DNA of 32,000 nucleotides. Source: Candidatus Jordarchaeales archaeon. GTDB lineage: Archaea; Asgardarchaeota; Jordiarchaeia; Jordiarchaeales; Freyrarchaeaceae. The DNA lies in assembly GCA_038858525.1 (NCBI GenBank), contig JAWCFL010000009.1, positions 32,512 through 64,511 of the forward strand, read 5' to 3'. Of the stretch, positions 10,591-30,146 are shown piece after piece. The position numbers and the translations under genes were made by a program. The notes below the pieces were generated by a model. That model made no database searches. It saw nothing but the letters and a program-made list of their open reading frames with translations, and was not told where the DNA came from. Numbering within the stretch: the stretch's first letter is position 1; every line of letters starts with the position of its first letter.

Positions 10591-10625
10591 CCTGTGTGGT
10601 TGACCTTCATAGCGGTGGATCTAAA

Positions 10626-11738
10626 TTGGAGCTTGAAGGAGCTCGAAGCCGCGAGTCGCCTGAATATGTGAGGGTGAGCTTGGCTGCCGCTATCACTCTA
10701 GGCATGCGTCCCGGAAGCTTCTTTAGGGGAGCTAAGCTTTACTGTCTAAACCTGCTGCTGACGTATGATGATGGGTGCATCGGCAGGTGCGCCTACTGCG
10801 GGCTTTCAAGGTCTAGGGTCCCCGTGTCAGAGTGGGTTGAGCGCAGCTTCATACGGGTAGACTGGCCTGTTGTCTCCCTCAAGGAAGTCGTGGAGAGAGT
10901 TGCTGAAGGGGTGTGTCAGCACGTTGAGCGCGCTTGCGTCTCCATGGTCACGCATAGGAGGGCTAGGAGGGACACGCTGAAGGTTGTCGAGGCCGTTAAG
11001 AGCGCCATCGATGAGGTCTCAGCCCTAATCTCCCCCACCATAATAGACAAGGAATGGCTTTGGAGCCTTGAGAGCGCCGGCGTCGACAAGGTTGGAGTAG
11101 CTGTGGATGCCGCTACGCCTGAGCTGTTCGAGAAGCTTAGGGGGAGAGGCGTTGGAGGACCTCACAGGTGGGAGAAGTACTGGGAAACAGTTGAGGAATC
11201 CGTGGAGGTTTTCGGGGCATTCAACGTCGGAATCCACCTAATAGTTGGGTTAGGTGAAATGGAGAGAGAAGCAGTTCGCGTCATTCAGACTGCCTACGAT
11301 ATTGGCGCGCTAACACATCTTTTCTCGTTCTTCCCAGAGGCGGGCTCCCTCCTAGAGTCGAAACCCCAGCCTCCCATAGGAAGCTACAGGAGAGTTCAGC
11401 TGGCAAGATACCTTATAAATAAGGGGCTTGCTAGGTATGAGGACATGGGGTTCGACCAGAGGGGGAGAATCATGGATTTCGGGGTCCCAGAAAGTGTTTA
11501 CGTGAAGGTGGTTGAGAGCGGGCTTCCCTTCATGACCTCAGGCTGCTCCAGTAAAAACAGGGAGAACGCGTGTAACAGGCCGTTCTCAGACTTCACACCA
11601 TACCAGGCATACCTGGGCGAAATAAGAAATTACCCTTTCAAGCCCGGCAAAGATGACGTGGAGATAATAAAGCGTCAGCTGGGAGATTACTCCGACACGC
11701 CAGTCAAGGTATGGGTGGAGGAGGCGATCGATGACTAG
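10626..11738 (+). CDS. lipS2: Radical SAM sulfur-insertion enzyme, LipS2-type lipoyl synthase component
   Basis: CX3CX2C motif (CIGRCAYC) and C-terminal TSGC...ACNRP, matching the TxGCPxC(N/D)RP motif described for LipS2 with an insertion. The ORF track start is 10596. Confidence 0.8.
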   Translation: MELEGARSRESPEYVRVSLAAAITLGMRPGSFFRGAKLYCLNLLLTYDDGCIGRCAYCGLSRSRVPVSEWVERSFIRVDWPVVSLKEVVERVAEGVCQHVERACVSMVTHRRARRDTLKVVEAVKSAIDEVSALISPTIIDKEWLWSLESAGVDKVGVAVDAATPELFEKLRGRGVGGPHRWEKYWETVEESVEVFGAFNVGIHLIVGLGEMEREAVRVIQTAYDIGALTHLFSFFPEAGSLLESKPQPPIGSYRRVQLARYLINKGLARYEDMGFDQRGRIMDFGVPESVYVKVVESGLPFMTSGCSSKNRENACNRPFSDFTPYQAYLGEIRNYPFKPGKDDVEIIKRQLGDYSDTPVKVWVEEAIDD

Positions 11739-12732
11739 GGGGCTTAGCCGTCACCAAGTGGTTGACTACTGCTTCGAGTGTGGTTCAGAGGAACTAAGGC
11801 GCCTGCTAGGCGCCGCTTACAGGGTAAGATCCGAAAACTTCCCTAACACCATCCAGTTCTACTTTCCAGGTATGGTTCACTTCGAGGCGAGCTTTCACAG
11901 GGCGGTGAACCCCTACCGTTTCCCTGCGGTATCCGTGACTGGGAAAGCATGCCAGCTGAACTGCGACCACTGCAAAGGCAGACTGCTGAGAAGCATGATG
12001 CCGGCGAAAAAACCCAGGCAACTCTATGAGGCTGCCTTGAAAGTGAAGAAGGAAGGAGGGGCTGGCGTCTTGGTTAGTGGTGGAAGCCTTGCTGACGGCA
12101 GCGTCCCCCTAAAACCGTTCTTCAGTGTGATGAGGAAAATTAAGGACGAGCTGGGCTTGAGCGTTGTTGTCCACACCGGGCTGGTTGACGAGGAGACCGC
12201 CGAGGGCCTTGCATCAGCCGGCGTGGATTGCGCCATGATAGACGTCGTCGGCTCCAACGAAACAATAAGGGAAATACTGCACCTGAACCGAGGCGTTGAG
12301 GAATATATTCGCTCGCTCGAGTTGCTCGAACTTCACGGTGTTCCGTTAGCCCCCCACATAGTGGTGGGGCTTCACAGGGGAATGTTGAGGGGGGAGAGGG
12401 AGGCGCTAAAGGCGATCTGCGAGAGAAAAGTTTCGGCCTTGGTCATCGTTGTCCTGACGCCCTTCGAGTCAACAGAGTCCCCGCCCTCCATAAGGGATGC
12501 GTTGAGGGTTATAGTCGCGGCAAGAATGATGAAGCCGAAAACCCCCCTACTCTTGGGGTGCGCTAGGCCGAAAGGCAAGTATAAGGATGCGCTTGACGTT
12601 TTAAGCATAAAGGCTGGGGTGAACGGGATAGCCTACCCGTCTGAGGTGGCTTACCGTGTGGCAGTTAGACGCAACCTATCCGTTAAGCTTCACGACGAAT
12701 GCTGCTCACTTGCTTGGAGGGATACGAACTGA
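11731..12732 (+). CDS. lipS1: Radical SAM sulfur-insertion enzyme, LipS1-type lipoyl synthase component
   Basis: CQLNCDHC, LLGCARP (the GC(M/A)R motif) and C-terminal ECCS (the CC motif), as described for LipS1. Confidence 0.82.
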   Translation: MTRGLSRHQVVDYCFECGSEELRRLLGAAYRVRSENFPNTIQFYFPGMVHFEASFHRAVNPYRFPAVSVTGKACQLNCDHCKGRLLRSMMPAKKPRQLYEAALKVKKEGGAGVLVSGGSLADGSVPLKPFFSVMRKIKDELGLSVVVHTGLVDEETAEGLASAGVDCAMIDVVGSNETIREILHLNRGVEEYIRSLELLELHGVPLAPHIVVGLHRGMLRGEREALKAICERKVSALVIVVLTPFESTESPPSIRDALRVIVAARMMKPKTPLLLGCARPKGKYKDALDVLSIKAGVNGIAYPSEVAYRVAVRRNLSVKLHDECCSLAWRDTN

Positions 12733-14330
12733 AGCCTGTTTGGCGTCTCCTAGACACCGGGCCTAGGACTGCCGCGGAGAACATGGCGCTTGACGAAGTG
12801 CTACTTGAGTGCAGGGCGATGGGTGTAAGCCCGAACACCTTCCGCCTCTTGAGGTTCAAACCTCCAGCAGTCCTAGTGGGCTACCATCAGGATGTCACTC
12901 AAGAGGTGAGATTGGACTACGTTGAAGAGAAGGGTATACATGTAAATAGGAGGATAACTGGTGGCGGCGCAATATACTTCGACGAAGAGTCAGTCGGCTG
13001 GGAAATCGTGGCTTCGAAAAGTAGCCTTCCACCGTATGGAAGCGTCGAGTCTCTCTTTAGGGTCATGTGTACCGGCGCCGTGAAGGCTCTGGAGAAGCTT
13101 GGGGTTAAGGCGTCTTTTCGCCCAAAGAACGACATAGAAGTTAAGGGGAGAAAGATCTCCGGGACAGGGGGAACGGAGAGGAGTGGAGCTATACTGTTTC
13201 AGGGGACGCTTCTAGTCGACTTTGACGTTGAAACGATGATTAAGGCTTTGAGGGTTCCCGTTGTGAAGCTTAAGGACAAGGAGATACGGTCAGTGAGGGA
13301 GAGGGTCACCTGTCTTTCGTGGGAGCTAGGCTACAAGCCGACCTACGAGGAGGTTAAGAGATGCTTGGTAAGCGGCTTCGAGGAGGCGATGAGCGTGGAA
13401 CTAAGGGAGGCGGGTCTCCTCGAGGAGGAGGAACGGATGCTTCGCGAGAAGTTACCGTACTTCCAGTCTGACGACTGGGTTTTCCTCGACAGGAAGTCGT
13501 CTGAAGAGCCAGCAGTCCTTTACTCCATAGCGAAGAAGCCTGGTGGACTGATAAGAGTGTCGCTGACGGTCGACAAGGAGGCGAAGATAATAAAGAGCTT
13601 ACTCATAACGGGTGACTTCTTCGCTTTCCCACCTAGAGTAATATACGACCTTGAAGCATTCCTGAAGTTCTCGCCGTGCAACGAGGAGGAGATACGTGGA
13701 AAGGTAAGGAAGTTCTTTGAAGCGAGGGGGGAGTGCATCCTCGGAGTCTCCCCAGACGACATCGCCAACCTGATAATTGAAGCCGCTGGAAAACTCTCCT
13801 ATGAAAGGTACGGGTTGAAGGGGGACGAGTTGAACTACATATTCCCCGTCACGGAGAAGGCGTGGATGGTGCCGCTGGGTGAGTGCGACTACCTGCTACT
13901 CCCCTACTGCGCGAAGCACATAGAGTGCAGCTACAGGAGAGTTGAAGGTTGCGAGAAGTGCGGCGTCTGTAGCATTGGGGACGCTTACAGGATGGCTGAG
14001 GAGGCTGGGCTAACCCCAATCACCATACAGAACTTCGAGCACCTCATGGAGGTCCTAAGCCTCATGAAGGAGAGAAAAATGAGGGGCTTCGTGGGGTGCT
14101 GCTGCGAGGCTTTCTACCAGAAGCACAGGGACGAGCTTGAAGCGATGGGCGTTCCTGGAATCATAATAACGATAGACGACAAGACATGTTACGAGCTGGG
14201 GAAAAGCGAGGAAGCATACAGAGGAGACTTTGAAGCCCAGACGAGGATTAAACTGGGCACGTTATCCAAAATAATAGGTAGCATATGCAAGTTCAGGAGT
14301 GGAGGCAGAAATCCAGTTGAAGCTCTGTGA
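12699..14330 (+). CDS. lplA: Lipoate-protein ligase (catalytic plus accessory domains) fused to a C-terminal Cys-rich DUF116-like domain
   Basis: NMALDEVLL, VNRRITGGGAIYFD, PKNDIEVKGRKISGTG, LFQGTLL and accessory-domain ITGDFF. These are followed by LPYCAK..C...CEKCGVCSIG...GCCCE. The true start may be TTG 12714 or CTG 12729. Confidence 0.88.
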   Translation: MLLTCLEGYELKPVWRLLDTGPRTAAENMALDEVLLECRAMGVSPNTFRLLRFKPPAVLVGYHQDVTQEVRLDYVEEKGIHVNRRITGGGAIYFDEESVGWEIVASKSSLPPYGSVESLFRVMCTGAVKALEKLGVKASFRPKNDIEVKGRKISGTGGTERSGAILFQGTLLVDFDVETMIKALRVPVVKLKDKEIRSVRERVTCLSWELGYKPTYEEVKRCLVSGFEEAMSVELREAGLLEEEERMLREKLPYFQSDDWVFLDRKSSEEPAVLYSIAKKPGGLIRVSLTVDKEAKIIKSLLITGDFFAFPPRVIYDLEAFLKFSPCNEEEIRGKVRKFFEARGECILGVSPDDIANLIIEAAGKLSYERYGLKGDELNYIFPVTEKAWMVPLGECDYLLLPYCAKHIECSYRRVEGCEKCGVCSIGDAYRMAEEAGLTPITIQNFEHLMEVLSLMKERKMRGFVGCCCEAFYQKHRDELEAMGVPGIIITIDDKTCYELGKSEEAYRGDFEAQTRIKLGTLSKIIGSICKFRSGGRNPVEAL

Positions 14331-15354
14331 CTTGATCGTTGTTGGGGCTGGCCCGGCAGGCGTAGCAGCAGCTATAAAGTCGGCTGAAGCGGGTTACAGC
14401 ACCATAATAGTCGAGAAGAGCGAGGGGCGGCGGAAGCCATGCGGAGGAGTTCTCACCACGGCGTGCATAGACGTCCTCTCACGTGAGTTAAACTTAAGTC
14501 TGCCCGAGAACGTTCTGAGCTCGCCCAGTAGCCTCAGCCTGTTCTACGTTTCCCCAAGCGGGTATGGGGGACGCGTGAGGAACTACAGTCTCGTGAACGT
14601 TGAAAGGCGTGCCTTCGACGAGTGGCTTAGAAGCGAGGCCTACGAGAGAGGAGCCAAACTGCTTTATGGCGCCAGCCTCGTGGACATCGAGCAGCGTGGC
14701 CGTGAAGTAATTGTTAACGTTAAACATAGGGGGCGAGTGGAGAAACTAGCGGCAAGGTTTCTAGTCGGGTCGGATGGGGCTCTCTCAAAAGTCAGAAGAG
14801 CACTTTATCCCGAAACGAGCTTTAAGCTGGCGTCCGTGGTTCAAGAGCACTGGGATGGTAATGGCGAGATCGAAGATTGCTTTTACATGCTTCTCTTGGG
14901 TTCTGACGTCACTCCTCTCTACGGCTACCTGATACCGAAGGGCTCCACATTAATCATTGGAGCGGGAGCACCGACGCTCAGAGAAGCCAGAGCCAGCCTC
15001 GCGAGGGTCAAGGATGCCCTAAAAGAAATGGACTTTAAGCCATACAGGTTGGTTAGGAAAGAACACTGGTTTATCCCTCAGGGAACAGTTCTGTATGGAG
15101 ACGGAAACATTGTTCTGGCGGGTGACGCTGGAGGCTTCTGCAACCCCTTCTCAGGTGAGGGAATCAGGTTCGCCCTTGAGACAGGGGCAGCCGCCGCACA
15201 AGCCTTGAAAAACGAAGACGGCTTCTCTGAAAGCTACAAGGGAGAAGTGGAGGAGATAGCATCCCTCATAAAGGTTCTTTCCCAATTTATGGTGAGATTA
15301 GATGACGAGGCAAGGGATGAATTTGTTAAACGCGAGCTCCGCAGATTCTTCTAG
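14317..15354 (+). CDS. Geranylgeranyl reductase-family FAD oxidoreductase (LipT-like by gene context)
   Basis: DLIVVGAGPAG, KPCGG, LVGSDG, YGYLIPKG and GDAGGFCNPFSGEGI. It overlaps the ligase stop. The ORF track start is 14299. Confidence 0.8.
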   Translation: MKLCDLIVVGAGPAGVAAAIKSAEAGYSTIIVEKSEGRRKPCGGVLTTACIDVLSRELNLSLPENVLSSPSSLSLFYVSPSGYGGRVRNYSLVNVERRAFDEWLRSEAYERGAKLLYGASLVDIEQRGREVIVNVKHRGRVEKLAARFLVGSDGALSKVRRALYPETSFKLASVVQEHWDGNGEIEDCFYMLLLGSDVTPLYGYLIPKGSTLIIGAGAPTLREARASLARVKDALKEMDFKPYRLVRKEHWFIPQGTVLYGDGNIVLAGDAGGFCNPFSGEGIRFALETGAAAAQALKNEDGFSESYKGEVEEIASLIKVLSQFMVRLDDEARDEFVKRELRRFF

Positions 15355-15385: not shown

Positions 15386-16741
15386 CTACCATGCCTCATA
15401 ATTTAATCCCCTGTCTTGTAACTCCTTCTTCATCCTGGAGTAGAGTTCCAGGTATTCTTTTCCTGGCTTAAGGGTTTTCATGTCGTACTTCTCCAGTATG
15501 AGAGTCTCGCTGGGGAGGCTAACCTTCACTTTTCCCTCGTATTTTGCGAGCAGCTCCTTCACTATTTCGACGCCGTCGCTTGTCTTGATGCCCGCTGCGG
15601 CCCTCGCCACTTCCCCGCCCCATCTTCCCTCTATTCCCGGCACGCCTCCCGTAAGCCACATTCCCTCCATGCCAGAGATGGTGTTAGTTATGACCGTGGC
15701 AGCGATAGCGTAGAAGGACACGTCGGTCGCCTGCTGCCCCGTAACCCCACCACCATAACTTATCCATGGAACCCTTATGTTCCTCTCTGCGGCGAGTGCT
15801 TGGGCGGAGTTAGCCCAGAAAACGTCTCTTCCCTCGTATCTTCCCTCGACCGTCGCGCTCATGGCTTGGGCAAAGGAGCCGCCGGAGTACGCCATCATTC
15901 CGAGAACATGAGCGATGCCCTCAACAGCAGCCTCCTCTGGGCCTCCTATGTAGGCGTACATGGTGGGACAACTGCTGATCCATGGGTTTATACCGTTCTG
16001 CTGGGCGAAGAATGCTAGGTTAAGCCTGTCATAGTCGATCCTCATGTCCTGTATAATGTGAACTGGGCACATGCAGTTGTGCCTCGTGTAACCTGCAGGG
16101 TGAAATGAGCCCATCACAGCCTTGGCGCTTGACACGCTCATGGGAATCCCTAGATACATGCCGGGTCTGCCTACACGGACTGCCGCCTCCCTGAGAATGA
16201 ATCCCTCAGTTAGCCCTAGGAGGGTTTCGCTGGGAGTCTCGCTCGTCGGCTTCAAGTCACCTATGCCCTGAAGCGGTAAAGCTATAAGTCCGTCAGCGAC
16301 AGGCTCCTTAGCTGCTGAGAGCACGTATGCCTTGTAAAGCTCAATGTTGCTGGTCAGAATTCCGGCGGGCAGAAAGGTCCTCGGCGGATCTCTGTCCTCC
16401 GGCTTCCTGAGCCTCAAAGCGATCTGGTCTCTTCCCTCCCCCAAGACCAGCTCCCTCTTCCTCGTGGCGAGGACCTCCTTGATCTCCTCCTCCGTGAACT
16501 TCACTATTCTCTTCGTGTCCTTATTATACAGGCCAACTTCCAGCAGGAGCTCGAGTCCAGCCTCGAAGATCTCGTCAGCCATACTGGCGTCGGTCATGAC
16601 GACCTCTTCCGGATCGTATTTTATCCCGTGCTCCCTCACGATTTCCTTTATTTTTGACGGGAAAAACTCGGTTTCAAACTCCTCCTCCTTCATGAGAGGA
16701 CCTGTCTGAGACCTTTCCAAAACCTCCCACAGCAACGACAC
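15386..16741 (-). CDS. mtmB: Monomethylamine methyltransferase MtmB-family protein, pyrrolysine-free
   Basis: Collinear with MtmB: FEAGLELLLEVGLYNKDTKRIVKFTEEEI, LGEGRDQI, GRPGM, YAYIGGPEE, GEVARAAAG and YDMKTLKPGKEYLELY. There is no in-frame TAG. GTG start with a GGAGG RBS. Confidence 0.88.
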   Translation of the reverse strand: MSLLWEVLERSQTGPLMKEEEFETEFFPSKIKEIVREHGIKYDPEEVVMTDASMADEIFEAGLELLLEVGLYNKDTKRIVKFTEEEIKEVLATRKRELVLGEGRDQIALRLRKPEDRDPPRTFLPAGILTSNIELYKAYVLSAAKEPVADGLIALPLQGIGDLKPTSETPSETLLGLTEGFILREAAVRVGRPGMYLGIPMSVSSAKAVMGSFHPAGYTRHNCMCPVHIIQDMRIDYDRLNLAFFAQQNGINPWISSCPTMYAYIGGPEEAAVEGIAHVLGMMAYSGGSFAQAMSATVEGRYEGRDVFWANSAQALAAERNIRVPWISYGGGVTGQQATDVSFYAIAATVITNTISGMEGMWLTGGVPGIEGRWGGEVARAAAGIKTSDGVEIVKELLAKYEGKVKVSLPSETLILEKYDMKTLKPGKEYLELYSRMKKELQDRGLNYEAW

Positions 16742-16776
16742 GTTAACCCCTCCGATCTCTTCAAATAAGAGAATTC

Positions 16777-16796
16777 AAAAATATATATGTGTTTTC
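16777..16796 (-). promoter_or_regulatory. BRE/TATA-like promoter for the mtmB-like gene
   Basis: The minus strand reads GAAAACAC-ATATATATTTTT, about 36-55 nt upstream of the start. Confidence 0.5.
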
Positions 16797-16860
16797 TTAA
16801 GGGGAGTTAATGCCACGAGAACGAATTTGCTCCGATTTTAGTCATAGAAACTTCTTCTGA

Positions 16861-16903
16861 GAAAAACTTTTTAGTGAGAAGAGCCGCAATTTTTTCTTTG
16901 CGG
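16861..16903 (+). promoter_or_regulatory. BRE/TATA-like element plus inverted repeat CCGCAA-N8-TTGCGG before the flavoprotein operon
   Basis: GAAAAA-CTTTTTAG at 16861-16874. Inverted repeat arms at 16884-16889 and 16898-16903. Confidence 0.45.
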
Positions 16904-16915
16904 TTGGATGGGAGG

Positions 16916-18601
16916 ATGGTGGGCTTGTCGACGTGGGATGTTGAAGTGGATGTTGTGGTTGTCGGTAGCGGTGCTGGCGCTCTGACCGCAGCCATAGTTG
17001 CTCATGACAAAGGAGCTAAAGTCATCGTCCTCGAGAAGACGGACAAGGCTGGAGGAGCAAGTGCTGTCTCTGGGGGAGCTGTCTGGGTGCCAAACAACAG
17101 GTTCATCAGGGAGGGGTTCCAGCCCGAATTTTGGGATCCCGACAGAGGAGAATGGGTTAAGGCTCCCGACTCCGAGGATAAAGCCTTCAAGTACATGAAG
17201 GCGATAGCCGCTGGCAGGTCTAGTGATGAGCTGATAAGAACGTATCTCAGAACGGTAAGTGAGGCTTGTGACTACTTGGAGAAGAACACGCACGTTAAGT
17301 GGTCGCACGTGAAGCTGATGCCGGACTACTTCCCCGAGTGGGAGGGCGGAGTAAAGGGTGGCAGGGTCATGGAGGCGCAGCTCATAAGCTTCAACTCTCT
17401 ACCCAAAGAGGTGGCTGAGCGAGTGAGGCTCTCCCCGGTCAGCCTCCCCATACTGCTCGAGGAACTGGTCGAGTGGGGCGGGCTGGCGACCATGATGAGC
17501 GGCAGGTGGGACTTCAACCTTATAAACGAAAGGCTGAAGGAAAGGTTCTACGGGTGGGGGACAGCGCTCATAGCTCGCCTACTGTACTCCTGCTACGAGA
17601 GGGGCATCGACATCAGGTATAATACTCCAGCTAAGAGGCTCATCGTTGAGGGGGGCAGAGTTGTCGGAGTGGTGGCGGGGCACGAGGGAAAGGAGCTTAG
17701 AATACGCGCTAGGAAAGGCGTGATCCTAGCGACCGGCGGCTTCGAGTGGCATGAGAAAATGCCTTCAGCCTTTCTGAGGGGGCCGATGAGGGGGCCCATG
17801 TCCCCGCCGCACAACACCGGCGACGGGCACCGTATGGCGATGGAGGTCGGAGCACAGGTCGACTTGATGTGTGAAGCGTGGTGGTTCCCAACGGTTTACA
17901 CAGGCGACTCCTACGATGGTAAACCATACTATAGGGGCATATTCTTCGAGAAAGTTCTACCTGGAGTCATAATAGTCAACAAGTATGGGAAGCGGTTCGC
18001 TAATGAGGGAGCGAATTACTTTGACTTCACGAGGGCGATGCACACCTGGGACCCGAATAGGCATGAGTATCCGAATATTCCGGCGTGGATGATTTTCGAT
18101 GAGCGCGTGCACCAGAGTTACACGATATTCACTCTTTATCCGGGAGCTGAGCCTACTGATCCACCGTTCAAGTGGGCTGACACGCTAAGAGACCTAGCAA
18201 GGAAGGCTGGAATAGACCCAGATGGGCTCGAAGAGACTGTTGAGAGGTTCAACAGGTATGCTAAGGAGGGCGTCGACCCGGACTTCCACCGTGGGGAGAG
18301 CTACTTTGACAGGTTTTATGGGGATCCGAACTGGAAGCCTAACCCAACCCTCGGACCGCTGGAGAAGCCGCCATTCTACGCCATCGAAGTATACCCGGGA
18401 TGCCTAGGCTCGTGTGGCGGCTTAAAGATAAACGAGAAGGCGCAGGTTCTCGACTACAATGACAAGCCTATACCCGGACTGTACGCGGCTGGCAACGTCA
18501 CAGCGGCAGTGTCAGGGGGAGGATACCCGAGCAGCGGCATAACTATAGGCGCGGGTATATGCTTCGGCTACATAGCGGCGAACGAGGTCACAAAAAAGTG
18601 A
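16916..18601 (+). CDS. FAD-dependent oxidoreductase of the FAD_binding_2 superfamily, 3-ketosteroid-delta1-dehydrogenase (KstD)-like
   Basis: DVVVVGSGAG, GGASAVSGGAVWVPNN, PDYFPE, LATGGFE, NTGDG, VNKYGKRFANE, FHRGES, PNPTLGPL, GGLKINEKAQVL, GLYAAGN and YPSSGITIG. ATG 16916 follows GGAGG. Confidence 0.85.
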   Translation: MVGLSTWDVEVDVVVVGSGAGALTAAIVAHDKGAKVIVLEKTDKAGGASAVSGGAVWVPNNRFIREGFQPEFWDPDRGEWVKAPDSEDKAFKYMKAIAAGRSSDELIRTYLRTVSEACDYLEKNTHVKWSHVKLMPDYFPEWEGGVKGGRVMEAQLISFNSLPKEVAERVRLSPVSLPILLEELVEWGGLATMMSGRWDFNLINERLKERFYGWGTALIARLLYSCYERGIDIRYNTPAKRLIVEGGRVVGVVAGHEGKELRIRARKGVILATGGFEWHEKMPSAFLRGPMRGPMSPPHNTGDGHRMAMEVGAQVDLMCEAWWFPTVYTGDSYDGKPYYRGIFFEKVLPGVIIVNKYGKRFANEGANYFDFTRAMHTWDPNRHEYPNIPAWMIFDERVHQSYTIFTLYPGAEPTDPPFKWADTLRDLARKAGIDPDGLEETVERFNRYAKEGVDPDFHRGESYFDRFYGDPNWKPNPTLGPLEKPPFYAIEVYPGCLGSCGGLKINEKAQVLDYNDKPIPGLYAAGNVTAAVSGGGYPSSGITIGAGICFGYIAANEVTKK

Positions 18602-18639
18602 AAAACGCGCGATGAAGCGTTTCTAGTGGGGGTGGTTTT

Positions 18640-19272
18640 TTGGTTGATGTTTCAGACCTCAGGAAGGCGATAGCCGAGATAAGAGAGGACGCGGAGGAGG
18701 TGACGAAGAAGCTTCTGGATGGGGGGGTAGACCCCGTAAAGATAATTGAGGAGGGAGTGGTCAAGGGGCTCTACGACTTGGGCGGAAAGTTCGAGAAGAG
18801 GCAGGCATTCATCCCAGACTTGGTTAAGGGAAGCAAGATCGCTAGGAAATGCATTGAGTTAATTGAAAGTGTTCTGCCGAAGGAGAAGGCTGGAGCCAAG
18901 AAAAAGGTTGTAATAGGAACGCTCCTCAGCAAGCATAACATTGGGAAGAACCTCGTGAGCACCTTTCTCACCATCAACGGCTTCGAGGTATACGATTTAG
19001 GGGAAAACCTTGAGCCTTGGGCGTTCTACGAGAAAGCTGAAGAGGTCGGGGCAGACCTTATAGCGGTCTCGATAGTCTTCACTCCCGCCCTAACAAAGTT
19101 TGAGGAGCTGATCAGGATACTTAAAGAGATGGGTGTCCGCGACAAGTACAAGGTGATCGTTGGGGGCGCCGTGACGTCGAAAGAATGGGCTGAGAGCGTG
19201 GGAGCTGACGGCTGGGCGCCGGACGTGGAGGGAGCAGTTAGGCTGGCGAAGGAATTGCTTGGAGTAAGCTAG
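18640..19272 (+). CDS. Methyltransferase cognate corrinoid protein (MtmC/MttC-like)
   Basis: N-terminal cap domain (GVVKGLYDLGGKFE..FIPDL), then HNIGKNLV, GFEVYDLG, ADLIAVS and KVIVGGA...GADGWA. TTG start. Confidence 0.9.
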   Translation: MVDVSDLRKAIAEIREDAEEVTKKLLDGGVDPVKIIEEGVVKGLYDLGGKFEKRQAFIPDLVKGSKIARKCIELIESVLPKEKAGAKKKVVIGTLLSKHNIGKNLVSTFLTINGFEVYDLGENLEPWAFYEKAEEVGADLIAVSIVFTPALTKFEELIRILKEMGVRDKYKVIVGGAVTSKEWAESVGADGWAPDVEGAVRLAKELLGVS

Positions 19273-19283
19273 GAGCCGAAAAC

Positions 19284-20198
19284 ATGCTTCTCCGCTTCAA
19301 ATCCCAACAGAAAATATTCAGGATAGCCGGCGTCAAAGTCGGCGGACAGCCAGGCGAAAACCCGACGGTGCTCATCGGAACAATATTTCATGAAGGAGAC
19401 AAAGCAGTGAAGGACCCAATTAAGGGTATTATCGATAGGGGGGAAGCCGAGGCGGCTTTGCTGAGGCAAGACGAGCTCTCCGACTCCACCGGGAACCCAT
19501 GCATGGTTGACGTCGTGGGACGGACAGGCAAGACGCTTATCAACTACTTAGACTTCGTGTCAAACGTAACTGATGCCCCAATCCTCATAGACTCCCCCTC
19601 GTTCGAGGCCCGGCTTGAAGCGTGCAGGCACGCCGTCGAAGTAGGACTAAAAGAGCACGTCGTGTACAACTCTATAAGCCCGGATTCCAGCCTGAAAGAA
19701 CTTGAAGCCCTGAAGGAAATGAAACTGGAGAGCGCCGTCCTCCTAGCATTCAGCGAGTATGAATTCTCACCGGAGGAAAAGCTGAGGCTGCTTAGCGGAG
19801 AGGGCGAATCACTCCTCCTAAAGGCGGAGAAGGCAGGCATCAAGAACATGCTCGTGGACGTCTCACTGCTAGATGTAGCAAGCATGGCGTACGCAGCGGA
19901 ATCCATAAAAGCAGTAAAAGAGACGCTTGGCCTCCCTAGCGGTTGCTCGCCTGCAAATGCCTTCGACACTTGGCGCCGCGTCAACGAACTAGCCCCACAA
20001 GCCAAGAGGACATGCCTAGCTTCCCTATGCGTCTTCGCACGATGCTTCGGGGCGGACTTCATACTATACGGCCCAGTGAGACTAGCAGAAGCGGTATTCC
20101 CGGCGTGCGCAATGGCTGACGCCATACTCACATACAGCCTCACGAAGGAAGGCTACGAGCCAGAAGACAAGAACATCCCGCTCTACAAAATCCTTTAA
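19284..20198 (+). CDS. mtrH: MtrH-family methylcorrinoid:tetrahydropterin methyltransferase (stand-alone, MtgA/MtxH-like)
   Basis: IAGVKVGGQPGENPTVLIGTIFH, PILIDS, VYNSI, LPSGCSPAN and GADFILYGP. No mtrA-G genes are present in the window. Confidence 0.9.
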   Translation: MLLRFKSQQKIFRIAGVKVGGQPGENPTVLIGTIFHEGDKAVKDPIKGIIDRGEAEAALLRQDELSDSTGNPCMVDVVGRTGKTLINYLDFVSNVTDAPILIDSPSFEARLEACRHAVEVGLKEHVVYNSISPDSSLKELEALKEMKLESAVLLAFSEYEFSPEEKLRLLSGEGESLLLKAEKAGIKNMLVDVSLLDVASMAYAAESIKAVKETLGLPSGCSPANAFDTWRRVNELAPQAKRTCLASLCVFARCFGADFILYGPVRLAEAVFPACAMADAILTYSLTKEGYEPEDKNIPLYKIL

Positions 20199-20264: not shown

Positions 20265-21644
20265 CTACGTTGACGCCACCCACGGGTACATCTCTTTCAG
20301 CTGTCTTATTGCTTCATTCACCTTCTCTTCCGGGTACTCGTAAGACTGCAGTTTACCGTTGTTGTACGCATCATAGGCTTGAAGGTCGAAGAAGCCGTGT
20401 CCGCACAACGTGAAGAATATAGTCTTCTCCTCACCCGTCTCCCTGCACTTGACCGCTTCATCTATCACCGCCTTTATAGCGTGGGCTGGCTCAGGCGCCG
20501 GCAAGAGCCCCTCGGTTCTGGCGAAGAGCGTGGCCGCCTCGAACACTTCAACCTGGTCATACGCCACCGCTTTAACGTAGCCCTCAACATTGAGCAGGCA
20601 GAGCGTTGGAGCCATACCGTGATACCTCAGTCCACCAGCATGTATGGGTGGAGGAACATAAGTGTGGCCTAGCGTGTGCATTTTTAGCAGCGGCGTCAGC
20701 CTAGCGGCGTCCCCATGGTCGTAAATGTATTCGCCTTTGGTGACCGAGGGACAGGCTTTAGGCTCCACAGCCAGGAACTCTGTGTCCTTAGGCGCCTTCC
20801 CCGTCACTTTATCATGATAGAAGGGCCAGAATGTGCCGGAGAAGCTGCTTCCTCCCCCTATGCATCCTATTACGATGTCGGGGTAGTCGTCGACTAGCTC
20901 AAACTGCTTCTTGGCCTCGAGCCCTATAACCGTCTGGTGCATCAGCACGTGGTTAAGCACGCTTCCAAGAGTATACTTGGTGTTCTCGCTGCTGAGCGCA
21001 TCCTCTATCGCCTCACTAATCGCTATTCCGAGACTACCCGGGTTGTCCGGGTCGCTTCTCAGAATCCTCCTGCCGAACTCCGTCCTATCGCTTGGGCTTG
21101 CGAGGACCTCGGCCCCCCAAGTCTCCATGAGAACCTTTCTGTAGGGCTTCTGCTGGTAGCTCGCCTTAACCATGTAGACGGTTGTTTTCATGCCGAAGAG
21201 GCAGCAGCTGAAGGCTAGGGCTGAGCCCCACTGTCCTGCTCCCGTCTCCGTGGTGAGCCGCTCGACGCCCTCCTTCATGTTGTAGTATGCTTGGGCGACT
21301 GCGGTGTTAGGCTTGTGGCTACCTGGAGGGCTCACCCCCTCGTTCTTGAAGTATATTTTGGCAGGCGTCTTAAGGGCTTTCTCAAGCCTGACTGCTCTGT
21401 ACATGGGGGTAGGCCTCCACACCATGTAGACCTCTCTTACCTCCTCCGGGATCTTTATCCACCTTTCCTGGCTGACCTCCTGCCTCACGAGCTCCTTAGC
21501 GAATATCCTTTCGAGCATGCTTGGGTTCACGGGTTTGCCGTCGGGGCCTCTTGGCGGTGGAAGAGGCTTTGGCAGGTCTGGCAGAATGTTATACCACTGC
21601 TTTGGCAGCTCATCCTCTTCGAGCACGATTTTTCTTGGCGGCAT
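20265..21644 (-). CDS. trpB2: Tryptophan synthase beta-like protein, type 2 (TrpB2)
   Basis: [27 protein letters not shown] (PLP lysine), [20 protein letters not shown] and [13 protein letters not shown] 21644; the ORF track start is 21674. Confidence 0.95.
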
Positions 21645-21695
21645 TCTTTCACTTCCTGATTTCGTCACATTCAAGTCCAGAATTACCTTTCCAAG

Positions 21696-21707
21696 TTAAA
21701 TTTAAAT
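21696..21707. promoter_or_regulatory. Palindromic TTAAATTTAA element, a candidate shared TATA box for the divergent trpB2 and ACT regulator genes
   Basis: Perfect 10-bp palindrome at 21696-21705, about 35 nt from TTG 21742 and about 50 nt from ATG 21644. Confidence 0.5.
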
Positions 21708-21741
21708 CTTGCGTGAACATAAATGTGCATGGTGGTTTGGT

Positions 21742-22245
21742 TTGTGGAGCAAAATAGCACACTACTTTAGCGAATACCCTAAAAGGCTAAGCGTAGCCAA
21801 AGTTCTCGTCGAGAACGGGTTAAGCGTCAGGGACGGCAGAATATTCTGCAACGAGATCGAGGTTCCACCTGTAAGGGTGGCAAGGGTTGCGGGCGTCGAC
21901 AGGAGGACCGTCGTGGAGACGGTGAAAATGATAACCGAGGATGAGGAGCTCAGAACCATATTTTCTCTCATAAGGAACGCTGGTGCGTCCCTCAGGGAAG
22001 TCGCGCGCCCACTCAACTTCGGTGTTGTGGAGATAACGCCCATCGACCCCAAAATGGTCGGCATAGTGGCCGGGGTAACCTCAATTCTAGCACAGAACAA
22101 CATAAGCATAAGGCAGGTGCTCACGGACGACCCCGAACTCAGCCCCGACCCGAAGCTGACCGTGATAGCCGACAGGAAAATACCCGGCGAGCTCATACCG
22201 GAGTTTCTAAAAGTGAGGGGAGTGGCGAAGGTCTCAGTATACTGA
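21742..22245 (+). CDS. Predicted regulator of amino acid metabolism with a C-terminal ACT domain (COG2150-like)
   Basis: MWSKIAHYFSEYP.RL.VAKVLVENGLSV, ARVAGVDRRTV (HTH-like) and GIVAGVTSILAQNNISIRQ (ACT). TTG 21742 follows GGTGG. Confidence 0.85.
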   Translation: MWSKIAHYFSEYPKRLSVAKVLVENGLSVRDGRIFCNEIEVPPVRVARVAGVDRRTVVETVKMITEDEELRTIFSLIRNAGASLREVARPLNFGVVEITPIDPKMVGIVAGVTSILAQNNISIRQVLTDDPELSPDPKLTVIADRKIPGELIPEFLKVRGVAKVSVY

Positions 22246-26905: not shown

Positions 26906-29900
26906 TTACTCGAAGAACTGTTTAACTATGTTCTCCGGTTCTTTTCCGCGCCTTATGAGCTCCGTCACTGTTTTGTCGAGTTCTTCTTCACTTATGCCTG
27001 CACGCCTGAATATCTCGTCTAGGAGGTCTCTCGTCGCCCAGTCTCTTTCGACATACGCGATGAATGCTGGCGGTGTTCCCTTGCCGCCCCTGTAGCTGTG
27101 GAGGGTCCACGTCCACGCTGAGCAAGGTAGGAATGTTCCGTCCGGTAGGGTTGAGGCTAAATGGTAGCATGCTATCATGTTCTCGATTGCCTCAGCTAGG
27201 CTGGTGTGTCCTTCCTCCTTAAGTTTCTCCACCGTTTTTTTCAGGCGCTCAACGAATATCCGGTGGTTTTTGTTTTCAAAGATCGAGTGAGCTGAGAGAG
27301 CCTCGACACCCCAGTGTTCCCTTATAGAGTTTGCCACGCTGACGCCGAACTTTCTCTTGCCGACGAAGCTCTTCCACATTTCGCCGAACCTCTCCAGTTC
27401 TACGATGTGCTTAGCGATCCTTATGAAGGCACGTAGCCTCGGAAACTCTCCTCCAACCCCAGCCTTGAGAGTGCTCACTATCACTCTGCCCGTAAGCCTA
27501 GAGATAGCCGTGCCCTCCCTTAGCTCTAGAACCATCGGTAGAAGCTCGTGCTCTACGACTATAGGCTTAATACTCACCTGCTCAAAGTGGTCTGGTTTCG
27601 CGTTGCTCTCCAGCCACCTCCAAATCCTGTTGTCGTATTCCCTTCCCTCTGAGAAGCTTGCCAGAGCTAATATGTCACAATACTCGCAGGGTATCTCTTC
27701 TATAAGGTTGCACCCAAACTTGCTTGGAAGATTAATTGGCGGGTTATCCTTCAAAATTTGCTGGGCAACTTCCGTCTTCAGAGCGAATGTTTCCCCGTGG
27801 GGGAAGTATGACAAAACGGAGTCCACAAACCTCTTAACGCCGTCGACAGAATAAAGGTCTCCCTGGAAAACTTTGCCTAGCTCCTCCTCCAGCCTTAACA
27901 TAATAGACTTGACTGCCTCAATAATTTTTGATGATGAAGCATCTCGAGGTAGTCTAAGCCTCTCAAAAATGAACTTTTCAAACTCTCTTTTCCTCCTATC
28001 GAGCACCGCCCTGTACGCTTCCTCCACTCTGAATGATCTGCCGTCCAAGGACATCATAACGGATGGCAGGGTCAACGGGGCACCCGGAATGAAGCCCTCC
28101 AGCGTCACCCACTCTGGCGCAGGCTCCACTCCAAGGTGGCGTAGGACGTCTCTCACGCTGATCGTGGCCACCCCGACAACCGTGTCAGCTCCACCATAAT
28201 AGAGGAATATCGTGTCCTCGATGAGCACTGCGCCGCAAGGGAAGACTACGTTCGGAACTTGGCCCCACCTCTCATACCACTCCTCCGGCTCCATGAGCGG
28301 CTCCTCAGATCTAGCTATGACCCTGAGCGGGTTCTCCGGGTCGAGCAGGAGCACACCAACCCGATAAACTCCCTCCTCGGAGACGCCGTGGTAGAAGAGA
28401 AGCCAGCCTTCCCTGATCTTTATCGGTGGAGGACCAATCCCGACTTTTCTACTATCCCACATCCCCTTTCTGGGGAAGATCCAAGAGTGGTGCTTGAGAG
28501 GCTTTCCGGTGAAGTCTAGATTCTCGCGCAGCTCGTAATCTATGCAGTCTCCCATGCGGTGCACAACTATGAAGCTGTCCATGTACTTCTCCGGAAAAAT
28601 GCAGGAGTTCTTGTCGAAGACGTCGTAGGGCGAGATTATGACGGGATACGACCACTTATCCCATCTTCCCGCCAAGAAGTCATCTACACTTATCGATGTC
28701 AGAGCAACACGGGCATTCAACCCATCGTAGGCAGTGTACGTCATATAGATTTTGTCGCCGATCAGCACCATCCTCGGATCCTCGCAGCCGGAGCCTAGGC
28801 CGGGAGCCGCCTTCTTCTCGAACGGCGCCCTAGGAACATATATCGGTTCGGGGGAACGATAGGTTATCTTGACACCGTCCTCACTGGTGGCGTATCCGAG
28901 AACAGAGGTGTTGTCCTCGGACTGCGCCCTGTATATTATGTGAACCTTCCCGCCCAAGTATATCGCAGCAGGGTTGAACGTCGCCTTAGCCTCCCAGTAG
29001 TGGGACCTTACCGGGGTTATTATGGGGTTTCCTTGGGGACGCACAAGCTTAACCGGCTTCTCCCTCATCGTCCACACTAAGAGTGGGAGGTTTATGTATG
29101 CCAAACAACACGTGGTGTCAGCCGCCCCGTAGTAAAGGTATATCGTGTCGTCCTCGAGCAGGGCCCCGGAGGGAAAAACAACGTTTGGCACCATACCTAT
29201 TCTTTCGTAGTACTCGCCCGGCGTCAATATTGGGGAATCCGTTCTAGCGATGATCCTCGCAGGGTTACGTAGATCCAAAAGCACCGCCTCGATACCGAAA
29301 AGCCTTTTCTGAGGCGAGAAGTAGTCTCTTATGTAGGAGTATATTAGAAGCCAACCGTAGGGCGTCTCGATTGGCGGAGCACCGACCTCGATGTGGTCCT
29401 GCGGCCTCCTCTGGAGGGGGAGGCTGTGCTTATCGAACTCGGAGTACCATTTTCTCCAGTAGTCCTCAGACCACAATTCACTTTCATCCTCGAATGATGC
29501 GAGACAGATCCTCGCTGGCGGCTTATCCGTGTGAACGGTCAGAACAGCCCACAGGGATCCGTTAATCCTTTCAGGAAACAGCGCCATGGCCTTTGCGTTG
29601 AACGGCGTAACCAAATGCTTCTCCTCAACTCTTCTAAGGTCTCTGCTCACGGCAACAGCGACCTTAATCCCGTCCGGGGTCGGTGGCCACTGTGACAGAG
29701 CAGTGTAAAAAACGTAATATTTTCCGTCGAGCTCGGTCACCCTCGGGTCCTCGCAGCCAAACCACTCCCAGCGATGCTCAGGGTATATGAACACTCTTCT
29801 GCCGTAAAATTCGACTCCATCCTCGCTCTCAGCCAGCCCTATCCTTGAAAGCCTCAGAGTCACGCCATCAACTGTTTCAAATGAGGATAAGGCACGGTAA

Positions 29901-30019: not shown

Positions 30020-30146
30020 CCGCCTAGCAAACAACAACATCACCTTAATTAAAATCAGGATCAACTACAAATAAAAGTATGCCGTTAGAAACATGAGGAA
30101 TCACATAAAAAAGAAGAAAAGTTGAGTTCTCACTGCTTGCGCGAAA

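Follow-up and report, generated by a model that had tools for sequence, protein, structure and literature searches.

Four genes and the intergenic region between two of them were analysed in a 32,000-nucleotide stretch of DNA from a Candidatus Jordarchaeales archaeon (hereafter the window; contig JAWCFL010000009.1). Sequence and profile searches place a methyltransferase gene (MT1) divergent from a plus-strand unit encoding a flavoprotein, a corrinoid protein and an MtrH-family protein (MT2):

15386..16741, minus strand: MT1, pyrrolysine-free MtmB family ('clade W'); 451 aa; PF05369
16742..16915, no strand: divergent intergenic region; 174 nt between start codons
16916..18601, plus strand: AcmB/KstD-type FAD-dependent 3-ketosteroid 1-dehydrogenase-like flavoprotein; 561 aa; PF00890
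18640..19272, plus strand: cognate corrinoid protein; 210 aa; PF02310 (B12-binding) and PF02607 (B12-binding_2)
19284..20198, plus strand: MT2, stand-alone MtrH-family methylcorrinoid:pterin methyltransferase; 304 aa; PF02007

This arrangement agrees with the preliminary description of the locus, which had put the divergent genes about 175 nt apart and had given the same plus-strand gaps of 38 nt (flavoprotein to corrinoid protein) and 11 nt (corrinoid protein to MtrH); this tight unit begins with the flavoprotein gene. Its reading frame opens with GTG at 16874, but the likelier start is the ATG at 16916, with GGGAGG directly 5' of it. Within the unit, Shine-Dalgarno-like motifs lie 5' of the second gene (corrinoid protein; GGGGGTGG) and of the third (MtrH; GGAG), and two putative TATA-like A/T-rich elements can be read in the intergenic region, AAAAATATATAT at ~16777-16788 and AAAAACTTTTTA at ~16862-16873. 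As had been proposed, the locus is predicted to encode a complete chain of MT1, corrinoid protein and MT2.

MT1 matches the MtmB profile PF05369 over positions 4-450 of 450 (211.9 bits, cut-off 25, E 2e-62). Its gene has no in-frame stop, and in an alignment with M. barkeri MtmB (1L2Q; 152 bits) Gly198 stands opposite pyrrolysine-202 (GRPGMYL-G-IP versus GRPGMGV-X-GP), this glycine being invariant among the 24 clade members compared. The absent in-frame amber codon, with Gly198 in its stead, excludes a pyrrolysine-dependent monomethylamine methyltransferase MtmB, and because glycine replaces pyrrolysine, monomethylamine is very unlikely as a substrate; the preliminary description had reached the same view on both points. 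An EmtA orthologue is ruled out as well: it shares 32% identity with EmtA of D. oestradiolicum, an orthologue 71% identical to the genetically validated EmtA (B9N43_10325), and the window MT1 and EmtA fall into two separate clades, each with an SH-aLRT value of 100. For these reasons, the EmtA substrate is not transferable to MT1 by orthology. Judging from its sequence, MT1 belongs to an uncharacterised clade within the MtmB family, here termed clade W, with 28-33% identity to EmtA; its identity to the clade-W protein DENOEST_v1_1155 of D. oestradiolicum is 46%.

The corrinoid protein is MtgC/MtbC-like, with NCBIfam scores below the cut-offs of those models. Its signature is GTLLS-K-HNIGKNLV, in which the Asp of the DxHxxG motif is lost and the loop is one residue shorter, with the His and Gly kept (S-K-H-N-I-G). 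S-x-H instead of D-x-H was found in every corrinoid protein adjoining a clade-W MT1 gene (20/20). GDxH is retained in EmtB, in the EmtB-like protein of a Binatia cluster, in the corrinoid protein paired with an Asgard MT1 paralogue of 36% identity, and in both other corrinoid proteins of this genome. MtrH, one of four homologues in the genome, matches PF02007 with 279.6 bits (E 4e-83) and exceeds the cut-off of the PRK00979.1-1 subfamily model (292 bits, cut-off 287), while remaining under the equivalog cut-offs for MtgA (273 versus 550) and mtrH (245 versus 271).

The flavoprotein matches PF00890 (FAD_binding_2) with an E-value of 1e-80. Its top NCBIfam matches are 3-ketosteroid 1-dehydrogenase models, and no NCBIfam equivalog cut-off was reached in the profile search (PRK12844, 3-ketosteroid-delta-1-dehydrogenase, 474 bits versus 789; PRK07843, 431 versus 788; ChcC1, 451 versus 1000). 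The closest solved relative is 7P18 (E 2e-108, residues 11-559 on 8-558), deposited as a 3-oxosteroid 1-dehydrogenase, which we take to be AcmB of Sterolibacterium denitrificans; residues 152-214 of the flavoprotein align with 7P18 but not with KstD1. Alignments with 7P18 and 8JOJ/4C3X place Tyr138, Tyr368, Tyr537 and Gly541 on KstD1 Tyr119, Tyr318, Tyr487 and Gly491, the catalytic residues of that enzyme (4C3X work). The flavoprotein was the only member of its family found in the genome; substrates of this family extend to cyclohexanones other than steroids, 4-oxocyclohexanecarboxylate (ChcC1) being one. The analysis revealed no evident electron acceptor for the flavoprotein, and no further steroid-catabolic genes were recognised within the window.

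The same gene set, in varied order and orientation, occurs in five Asgard genomes of two genera (g1, g3), at three of the six MT1 loci of the Bathyarchaeota chromosome OY970340.1, in another archaeon (L074) and on a metagenome contig of unplaced origin (L076). The pairing of MT1 and flavoprotein is more than chance: for the 3.05-Mb Bathyarchaeota chromosome, a rough hand estimate gives ~5e-6 as the chance that three of five KstD-like genes lie within 2 kb of one of the six MT1 genes. Identity of the L076 proteins to those of the window is 37% for KstD and 58% for MT1, which suggests that the KstD on L076 was recruited separately. In a set of 400 Asgard genomes, MT1 and the flavoprotein had close orthologues only in the same genera, and in 300 other Bathyarchaeia genomes neither was found. 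A flavoprotein never syntenic with such methyltransferases had been named in the preliminary description as evidence against the proposed system; instead, synteny is found in several phyla, and given this conservation the flavoprotein appears to be a genuine partner of the methyl-transfer chain.

Clade W also occurs close to known steroid genes. The Binatia cluster holds two clade-W MT1 genes beside a gene 68% identical to EmtA, and in D. oestradiolicum DENOEST_v1_1155, together with 1153 (pterin-binding) and 1156 (corrinoid), lies ~13 kb from emtA in an estradiol-induced island. Published proteomics reports induction of this clade-W copy on estradiol relative to acetate; because acetate was the reference and the island is a large one related to cobalamin and C1 metabolism, the induction may reflect co-regulation rather than a steroid substrate. 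The adjacent KstD genes, the clustering with EmtA-type genes and the Denitratisoma induction are three observations linking clade W to steroids.

RamA and mtrA-G are absent from the window, as observed previously; elsewhere the genome carries an MtrA-MtrH fusion and two RamA genes, of which one is located on this contig, 11-13 kb upstream of the window. Mch and CdhC are encoded in the genome (92.7% complete), in which McrA and FTHFS were not found. From this gene content, the methyl group should reach the tetrahydromethanopterin (H4MPT) C1 pool, in line with the earlier expectation. Two other methyl-transfer modules in the genome, MttB-family and URO-D/Mto-like, are of the heteroatom type and each has its own MtrH.

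The earlier statement that no characterised system uses a pyrrolysine-free MtmB or a KstD-type enzyme is outdated, as EmtABCD (10.1101/714501), AbeABC with a 3-oxosteroid 1-dehydrogenase (PMC11912376) and MtqBC (PMC13044021) have been published, and 'undescribed system' is too strong a term for what is an uncharacterised sister clade and an archaeal arrangement of a type already known. In Phosphitispora sp. TUW77, a 3-oxosteroid 1-dehydrogenase yields 1-dehydrotestosterone, and AbeA (a pyrrolysine-free MtmB homologue reported to be ~40% identical to EmtA), AbeB and AbeC transfer the androgen C19 methyl to tetrahydrofolate and on into the oxidative Wood-Ljungdahl pathway (PMC11912376). This anaerobic bacterial estrogenesis has the same logic as that proposed for the window locus, from KstD-formed dienone through pyrrolysine-free MT1, corrinoid protein, MT2 and pterin to the Wood-Ljungdahl pathway; in the window, MT1, corrinoid protein, pterin MT2 and a KstD-type gene share one locus, and CdhC and Mch are in the genome. 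As in the Bathyarchaeota relative, the MT1 of the AbeABC system occurs in several paralogous copies. AbeA, however, would belong to another clade than the window MT1 (the relation of clade W to AbeA and MtqB being judged by published identities only), and AbeC with tetrahydrofolate is replaced by MtrH with H4MPT as the likely carrier. The window further differs in its S-x-H corrinoid protein, in the linkage of the dehydrogenase gene to the methyl-transfer genes at one locus and in its archaeal host.

EmtABCD of Denitratisoma, whose pyrrolysine-free MtmB homologue EmtA serves C10-methylation of estradiol (10.1101/714501), resembles the window in its MtmB-family MT1 with glycine at the pyrrolysine position, its dedicated corrinoid protein and its RamA-type activation, but EmtB keeps GDxH, a pterin MT2 is absent, SAM is used and the direction is methylating. 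MtqB of Methanococcoides methylutens Q3c, a pyrrolysine-free MtmB homologue for tetramethylammonium and choline with a conserved Met/Cys and aromatic signature in its binding site, likewise has its own corrinoid protein (MtqBC/MtqA); unlike the window system, it acts on quaternary amines, relies on MtbA to deliver the methyl group to coenzyme M and lacks a flavoprotein partner. The same work mentions non-pyrrolysine MtmB homologues in Asgard archaea and places MtqB near the pyrrolysine-containing MtmB enzymes (PMC13044021). MtmB/MtmC/MtbA of Methanosarcina (1L2Q, 1NTH) has the PF05369 fold and family and the MT1/corrinoid principle in common with the window, but pyrrolysine and a CoM methyltransferase where the window has Gly198 and MtrH, with no mcr genes found in the Jordarchaeales genome. 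AcmB (7P18) and KstD1 (4C3X) share the FAD_binding_2 fold and the Tyr/Tyr/Tyr/Gly set with the flavoprotein, its similarity to 7P18 being full-length, whereas the flavoprotein is archaeal, embedded in a corrinoid methyl-transfer operon and below the NCBIfam equivalog cut-offs. MtgA (glycine betaine) and Mto-like methoxy modules also employ a stand-alone MtrH homologue as MT2, but with an MttB-family or URO-D-type MT1, whereas in the window MtrH is paired with a KstD-type flavoprotein and an MT1 of the MtmB fold.

The best explanation, which we hold tentatively and at somewhat less than even confidence, is that the four genes form one oxygen-independent catabolic module that removes the C-bound methyl of a cyclic, steroid-like ketone, through desaturation and then an aromatising C-demethylation feeding methyl-H4MPT. 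To judge by its family and its intact catalytic residues, the flavoprotein, of AcmB/KstD type, would desaturate a 3-oxo-4-ene-type ring beside the carbonyl, giving a cross-conjugated dienone whose quaternary ring carbon would still bear the angular methyl. By analogy with the paralogous AbeA and EmtA, the pyrrolysine-free MT1 would bind this dienone and transfer a methyl cation to Co(I) of the S-x-H corrinoid protein, with aromatisation of the ring to a phenol as the probable driving force. MtrH, to go by its family, would pass the methyl group from methyl-Co(III) to tetrahydromethanopterin, and the presence of Mch and CdhC genes suggests that methyl-H4MPT would enter the archaeal Wood-Ljungdahl pathway, to be oxidised or built into acetyl-CoA; oxidised Co(II) would be reduced again by a RamA activator, two of which are encoded outside the window. 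Candidate substrates are androgen-type steroids, sterol or triterpenoid ketones and other methyl-substituted cyclohexenones. By sequence, MT1 itself is no more than a remote relative of the bacterial enzymes for which such steroid chemistry is proven. The preliminary description had envisaged a probably cyclic, N- or O-methylated compound on which the flavoprotein acts. A cyclic substrate oxidised by the flavoprotein is still the best reading, but an N- or O-methyl group is less likely than the C-bound angular methyl of a steroid-like dienone, because the catalytic residues of the AcmB/KstD type are intact and the clade of MT1 is associated with islands of steroid genes.

Three other readings were weighed against this aromatising C-demethylation. 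We consider it unlikely that the module removes an N-, O- or S-methyl group from a ring compound, perhaps a steroid or terpenoid, with the KstD-like enzyme preparing the substrate ring or further oxidising the product ring and with the corrinoid protein and MtrH relaying the methyl group to H4MPT. Such a reaction would accord with the N-methyl substrates of the MtmB-family enzymes characterised outside EmtA and AbeA (monomethylamine for MtmB, tetramethylammonium and choline for MtqB; PMC13044021), with the heteroatom type of the two further MtrH-containing modules of the genome and with the distinctness of clade W from the EmtA clade. It leaves unexplained, however, why a catalytically intact KstD/AcmB-type desaturase was repeatedly recruited beside MT1, and ring-A chemistry on steroids is indicated both by the emtA-linked, estradiol-induced copy in Denitratisoma and by the Binatia cluster. 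The known O-demethylases also have MT1 folds other than that of the MtmB family.

A lack of any functional coupling, with MT1, corrinoid protein and MtrH forming a methylotrophy module for quaternary amines or other small molecules and the flavoprotein an unrelated neighbour by inherited synteny, seems quite improbable. A KstD-like gene is absent within 10 kb at most bacterial clade-W loci, another Asgard family has stand-alone KstD-like genes with methyltransferase genes absent within 10 kb, and half of the MT1 copies on the Bathyarchaeota chromosome (3/6) have no KstD neighbour, all of which would fit independent genes. Yet the adjacency recurs in Asgard archaea, Bathyarchaeota, L074 and L076, and, because gene orders are shuffled and the KstD lineage on L076 is divergent, neither inherited synteny nor chance would be expected to produce it; the flavoprotein moreover heads a tightly spaced unit with the corrinoid and MtrH genes. 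Highly improbable, in our view, is a reverse, Emt-like route for anaerobic degradation of phenolic steroids, in which methyl-H4MPT would methylate the corrinoid protein through MtrH, MT1 would C-methylate a phenolic (estrogen-like) ring to a dienone and the KstD-like enzyme, running in reverse, would reduce the 1,2 double bond. EmtAB performs such ring methylation in Denitratisoma (10.1101/714501), where estradiol, a phenolic substrate, induces the clade-W proteins, and in extracts either partial reaction can also run backwards (PMC7448270). Jacoby et al., however, found the methylation of the phenolic ring by methylcobalamin to be endergonic and to need SAM as the driving donor, for which methyl-THF is no substitute (PMC7448270). 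A pterin-type MT2 is always present at clade-W loci and SAM-regeneration genes are absent from them, which argues further against this direction, as does the fact that downstream 2,3-seco-type genes were not seen within the window.

Early-diagenetic aromatisation of ring A of steroids and triterpenoids occurs in anoxic sediments. It is possible, if doubtful, that clade-W MT1, S-x-H corrinoid protein and KstD-type desaturase constitute a second, independent lineage of oxygen-free 'aromatases', taking the angular methyls of sterol and triterpenoid ketones as C1 substrates for the Wood-Ljungdahl pathway in Asgard archaea, Bathyarchaeota, Dehalococcoidia-like and other uncultured sediment and soil organisms. 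If so, such a lineage would supply the missing enzymology for this diagenetic aromatisation and would place a steroid-transforming capacity in relatives of the eukaryotic ancestor.

The module occupies positions 15386–20198 of the window, and the gene and profile matches bear out the preliminary description of four adjacent genes encoding an MtmB-family methyltransferase (MT1), a flavoprotein, a corrinoid protein and MtrH, the methylcorrinoid:pterin methyltransferase (MT2).

15386–16741, minus strand: MT1 of the MtmB family, 451 aa, PF05369 matched over the whole profile
16874 (opening GTG; probable start ATG 16916) to 18601, plus strand: flavoprotein, FAD_binding_2
18640–19272, plus strand: corrinoid protein
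19284–20198, plus strand: MtrH (MT2)

The start codons of the MT1 and flavoprotein genes have 174 nt between them, while the plus-strand gaps are 38 nt (flavoprotein/corrinoid protein) and 11 nt (corrinoid protein/MtrH). The probable flavoprotein start, ATG 16916, directly follows GGGAGG; GGGGGTGG precedes the corrinoid gene and GGAG the MtrH gene.

The best solved relative of the flavoprotein is 7P18 (E 2e-108, residues 11–559 against 8–558), deposited as a 3-oxosteroid 1-dehydrogenase (AcmB of Sterolibacterium denitrificans); Rhodococcus-type 3-ketosteroid 1-dehydrogenases (KstD) are the next-best structures, with fumarate and urocanate reductases far behind. Residues 152–214 align with AcmB only, and Tyr138, Tyr368, Tyr537 and Gly541 align with Tyr119, Tyr318, Tyr487 and Gly491 of KstD1, the catalytic set of that enzyme. 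The protein falls below every NCBIfam equivalog cut-off and is the sole member of this KstD-like family found by searching the source genome.

The MT1 gene has no internal stop, and alignment with 1L2Q, the structure of M. barkeri MtmB, puts Gly198 of its product at the pyrrolysine position. The preliminary description knew of no characterised system with a pyrrolysine-free MtmB, a statement now outdated, since three pyrrolysine-free MtmB homologues have been characterised. In Denitratisoma, EmtA adds a methyl group to C10 of estradiol (10.1101/714501; PMC7448270). The substrate of AbeA from Phosphitispora sp. TUW77 is 1-dehydrotestosterone, from which it removes a methyl group (PMC11912376), and MtqB of Methanococcoides works on tetramethylammonium and choline (PMC13044021). 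A family search found two MtmB-family members, 13 kb apart, in the D. oestradiolicum genome. The product of DENOEST_v1_1155 (P0161), 46% identical to the window MT1, was considered as EmtA and rejected on gene order, published locus tags and the 71% match of the other copy to B9N43_10325; the assignment of the window MT1 as an EmtA orthologue was therefore dropped. EmtA of this species is DENOEST_v1_1170, the copy followed by glyA and 71% identical to the knocked-out B9N43_10325, and it shares only 32% identity with the window MT1.

Trees of 149 and 75 MtmB-family members, drawn without AbeA and MtqB, placed the window MT1 in a clade here termed clade W (SH-aLRT 100) and EmtA in a different clade (SH-aLRT also 100). 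Archaeal members of clade W are Asgard sequences, six paralogues of one Bathyarchaeota chromosome and one further archaeon, and its bacterial members are from Dehalococcoidia, Myxococcota, Delta- and Gammaproteobacteria, Binatia and D. oestradiolicum (DENOEST_v1_1155). Clade W is 28–33% identical to EmtA, against a published value of about 40% for AbeA, which suggests that AbeA lies with EmtA. Clade W is therefore related to the steroid methyltransferases without being orthologous to them, and is itself uncharacterised.

The corrinoid protein of the window carries GTLLS-K-HNIGKNLV at the site where canonical partners have GT-x-x-GD-x-H. Every corrinoid protein adjoining a clade-W MT1 gene (20/20), from Asgard archaea to Denitratisoma, has this S-x-H motif and a loop shortened by one residue, whereas GDxH is kept in 5/5 comparison proteins (EmtB, the EmtB-like protein of a Binatia cluster, the corrinoid protein paired with an Asgard MT1 paralogue of 36% identity and the other two corrinoid proteins of the source genome). 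Judging from this complete separation of motifs, the clade-W MT1 and its corrinoid protein are a co-evolved pair. The MT2 of clade-W loci is MtrH in archaea and, in bacterial and unplaced loci, a PterinBD-DUF4346 protein that is often fused to a thymidylate-synthase-like domain.

The preliminary description had proposed synteny of the flavoprotein with such methyltransferase genes in related genomes as a test, and adjacency was found in several lineages. Clade-W MT1 genes have a KstD-like neighbour in divergent layout in five Asgard genomes of two genera, at 3/6 MT1 loci of the Bathyarchaeota chromosome OY970340.1 (in the orders KstD, MT1; corrinoid protein, KstD, MT1; and MtrH, corrinoid protein, MT1, KstD), in the archaeal locus L074 (KstD then MT1) and on L076, an 811-kb metagenome contig of unplaced origin (KstD, MT1, corrinoid protein). 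The L076 KstD-like protein is only 37% identical to that of the window, compared with 58% for MT1, which points to separate recruitment of KstD on this contig and not to an inherited gene order. Close orthologues of the window MT1 and of the flavoprotein occur in the same two genera among 400 Asgard genomes, and neither was found in a class-wide sample of 300 Bathyarchaeia genomes other than OY970340.1. That chromosome has six MT1 paralogues of clade W, together with five genes of the KstD-like type (loci L014/L059, L025, L029, L030, L034, L087 and L084); frameshifts, perhaps long-read indel errors or a sign of pseudogenes, interrupt two of the MT1 copies (L029, L034) and one of the KstD-like copies. 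The split MT1 genes at L029 and L034 were also considered as pyrrolysine-codon cases and rejected, the interruptions being frameshifts and not in-frame TAG. Most bacterial clade-W loci have the composition TetR, pterin-binding protein, MT1 and corrinoid protein, without an adjacent KstD gene. A stand-alone KstD-like gene, 38–42% identical to that of the window, is present in 23/31 genomes of another Asgard family, f8 (e.g. L080:9589-11208, L081, L082, L083), and at the four loci examined the 10 kb to either side of it are free of genes for a clade-W MT1, a corrinoid protein or MtrH.

Links to steroid metabolism are found outside the Asgard archaea. The clade-W set of D. oestradiolicum (L062:8937-12103, LR778301.1) consists of genes for a pterin-binding protein (1153), MT1 (1155) and a corrinoid protein (1156), flanked by a TonB receptor on one side and by cobalamin salvage, RamA and emt genes on the other. 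Entries of the published proteome tables (PMC7448270 supplements), assigned to these genes by our own gene mapping, show log2 changes in estradiol-grown relative to acetate-grown cells of 18.4 (1153), 23.2 (1155) and 4.1 (1156). Table S3 of that study annotates DENOEST_v1_1155 as 'PurM' and lists no counterpart of this set in either strain DHT3 or S. denitrificans (PMC7448270); the protein is in fact MtmB-family, encoded between the pterin-binding protein and the corrinoid protein. The Binatia cluster contains two clade-W MT1 genes together with a gene 68% identical to EmtA. Old-Yellow-Enzyme-type reductases and molybdopterin oxidoreductases serve anaerobic steroid metabolism; Old-Yellow-Enzyme/Pyr_redox reductase and molybdopterin oxidoreductase genes flank the Bathyarchaeota locus L059, a molybdopterin oxidoreductase gene precedes the KstD-like gene in L074, and these neighbours lend weak support to the steroid link.

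The source genome (2.09 Mb in 63 contigs; window at G000:C9:32512-64511) has its nearest public loci in Candidatus Jordarchaeum contigs (MT1 93% identical) and in contigs labelled Freyarchaeota. The 90%-identity cluster of the window MT1 is variously labelled Thermosphaera sp., Candidatus Jordarchaeales and Candidatus Freyarchaeota in NCBI; of these labels, Thermosphaera sp. probably arose through faulty binning or naming. The genome encodes four homologues of MtrH and two RamA activators, gives seven B12-binding matches, and includes the following further methyl-transfer loci.

G000:C9:19223-26502 (L053:5223-12502), 6–13 kb upstream of the window start on the same contig: module of MttB-family MT1, corrinoid protein, MtrH and RamA
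Contig C51 (L054:2669-8769), all on one strand: Mto-like module of corrinoid protein, URO-D-type methyltransferase, MFS transporter, MtrH and RamA
G000:C12:34869-36278: MtrA-MtrH fusion, both domains in one 519-aa open frame

The module upstream on C9 comprises an MttB-family gene (504 aa, uninterrupted by stops), a corrinoid protein that keeps the canonical GDIH, a paralogue of the thermosome and MtrH. Its RamA is represented by two ORFs, of 522 aa and 202 aa, whose RACo_C_ter matches overlap, so a frameshift or an assembly error may have split the gene. The genome search located one TAG inside the RamA match of the C51 module, and the C12 fusion seems to correspond to the 'MtrAH' of Sun et al. 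2021. The genome encodes Mch and CdhC, and searches for McrA and formyl-THF synthetase in this 92.7% complete genome found neither. Given these presences and absences and the several methyl-transfer modules, the organism looks like a non-methanogenic archaeon feeding several methyl sources into an H4MPT-type Wood–Ljungdahl pathway, in agreement with the proposal of Sun et al. for Jordarchaeia (PMC9723677).

Our best reading of the module, held tentatively, is a steroid-like ring desaturation followed by aromatising C-demethylation into methyl-H4MPT. From the observed gene set, its conservation, the conserved residues and the presence of RamA, Mch and CdhC, we infer catalytic steps in which the flavoprotein would convert a 3-oxo ring to a cross-conjugated dienone, MT1 would hand the angular methyl group on to Co(I) of the S-x-H corrinoid protein in a reaction driven by aromatisation, and MtrH would pass the methyl to H4MPT for entry into the Wood–Ljungdahl pathway, with RamA repairing Co(II). 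Such a mechanism would mirror the AbeABC scheme, in which KstD and a corrinoid three-component demethylase lead to the Wood–Ljungdahl pathway, but its logic would here be run by an uncharacterised MT1/corrinoid lineage with an archaeal MT2. Removal of a heteroatom-bound methyl from a cyclic compound, although consistent with the wider MtmB family, leaves the recurrent KstD partner unexplained and seems to us rather unlikely. The shuffled yet persistent adjacency across lineages makes it improbable that the flavoprotein has no functional coupling with the methyl-transfer genes, and an Emt-like methylating direction, disfavoured by both published thermodynamics and the pterin MT2, is the least probable of these alternatives.

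No archaeal version of such a module, nor any treatment of clade W, was found in the literature searched. If the aromatising demethylation is correct, this O2-independent chemistry would not be limited to one fastidious Firmicute and, in reverse, denitrifiers, but would also occur in archaea (Asgard, Bathyarchaeota) and several uncultured bacterial lineages. Angular methyls of polycyclic terpenoids would then be an overlooked C1 substrate for Wood–Ljungdahl organisms, and the module would provide candidate genes for estrogen-like and ring-A-aromatic products in anoxic sediments. A clade-W MT1 with Gly at the pyrrolysine site, a corrinoid protein with LS-x-HNIGKN and a pterin MT2 together offer a testable signature, recognisable from sequence, for gene-centric surveys, and the analysis also singles out DENOEST_v1_1155, an unstudied protein that is strongly estradiol-induced and tabulated as 'PurM'.

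Several neighbouring genes were also noted. A geranylgeranyl-reductase-family flavoprotein gene (window 14299–15354) stops 31 nt short of the MT1 stop codon and is also kept beside MT1 in Ca. Jordarchaeum (L002, 71% identity). Directly downstream of the MtrH gene, a TrpB-like PLP enzyme (TIGR01415 type) is divergent to a TrpY-family regulator (window 20265–22245), a pair conserved in L002 and with no evident link to the methyl-transfer module. Window 10596–14330 contains genes for LipS2-like and LipS1-like lipoyl synthases of the radical-SAM type and, after them, one for a 543-aa lipoate-protein ligase with a fused DUF116 domain. At 26906–31145, the gene for a protein of 1052 aa that includes a GH130 mannoside phosphorylase domain adjoins genes for a shorter GH130 paralogue (332 aa) and for a cupin-type mannose-6-phosphate isomerase.
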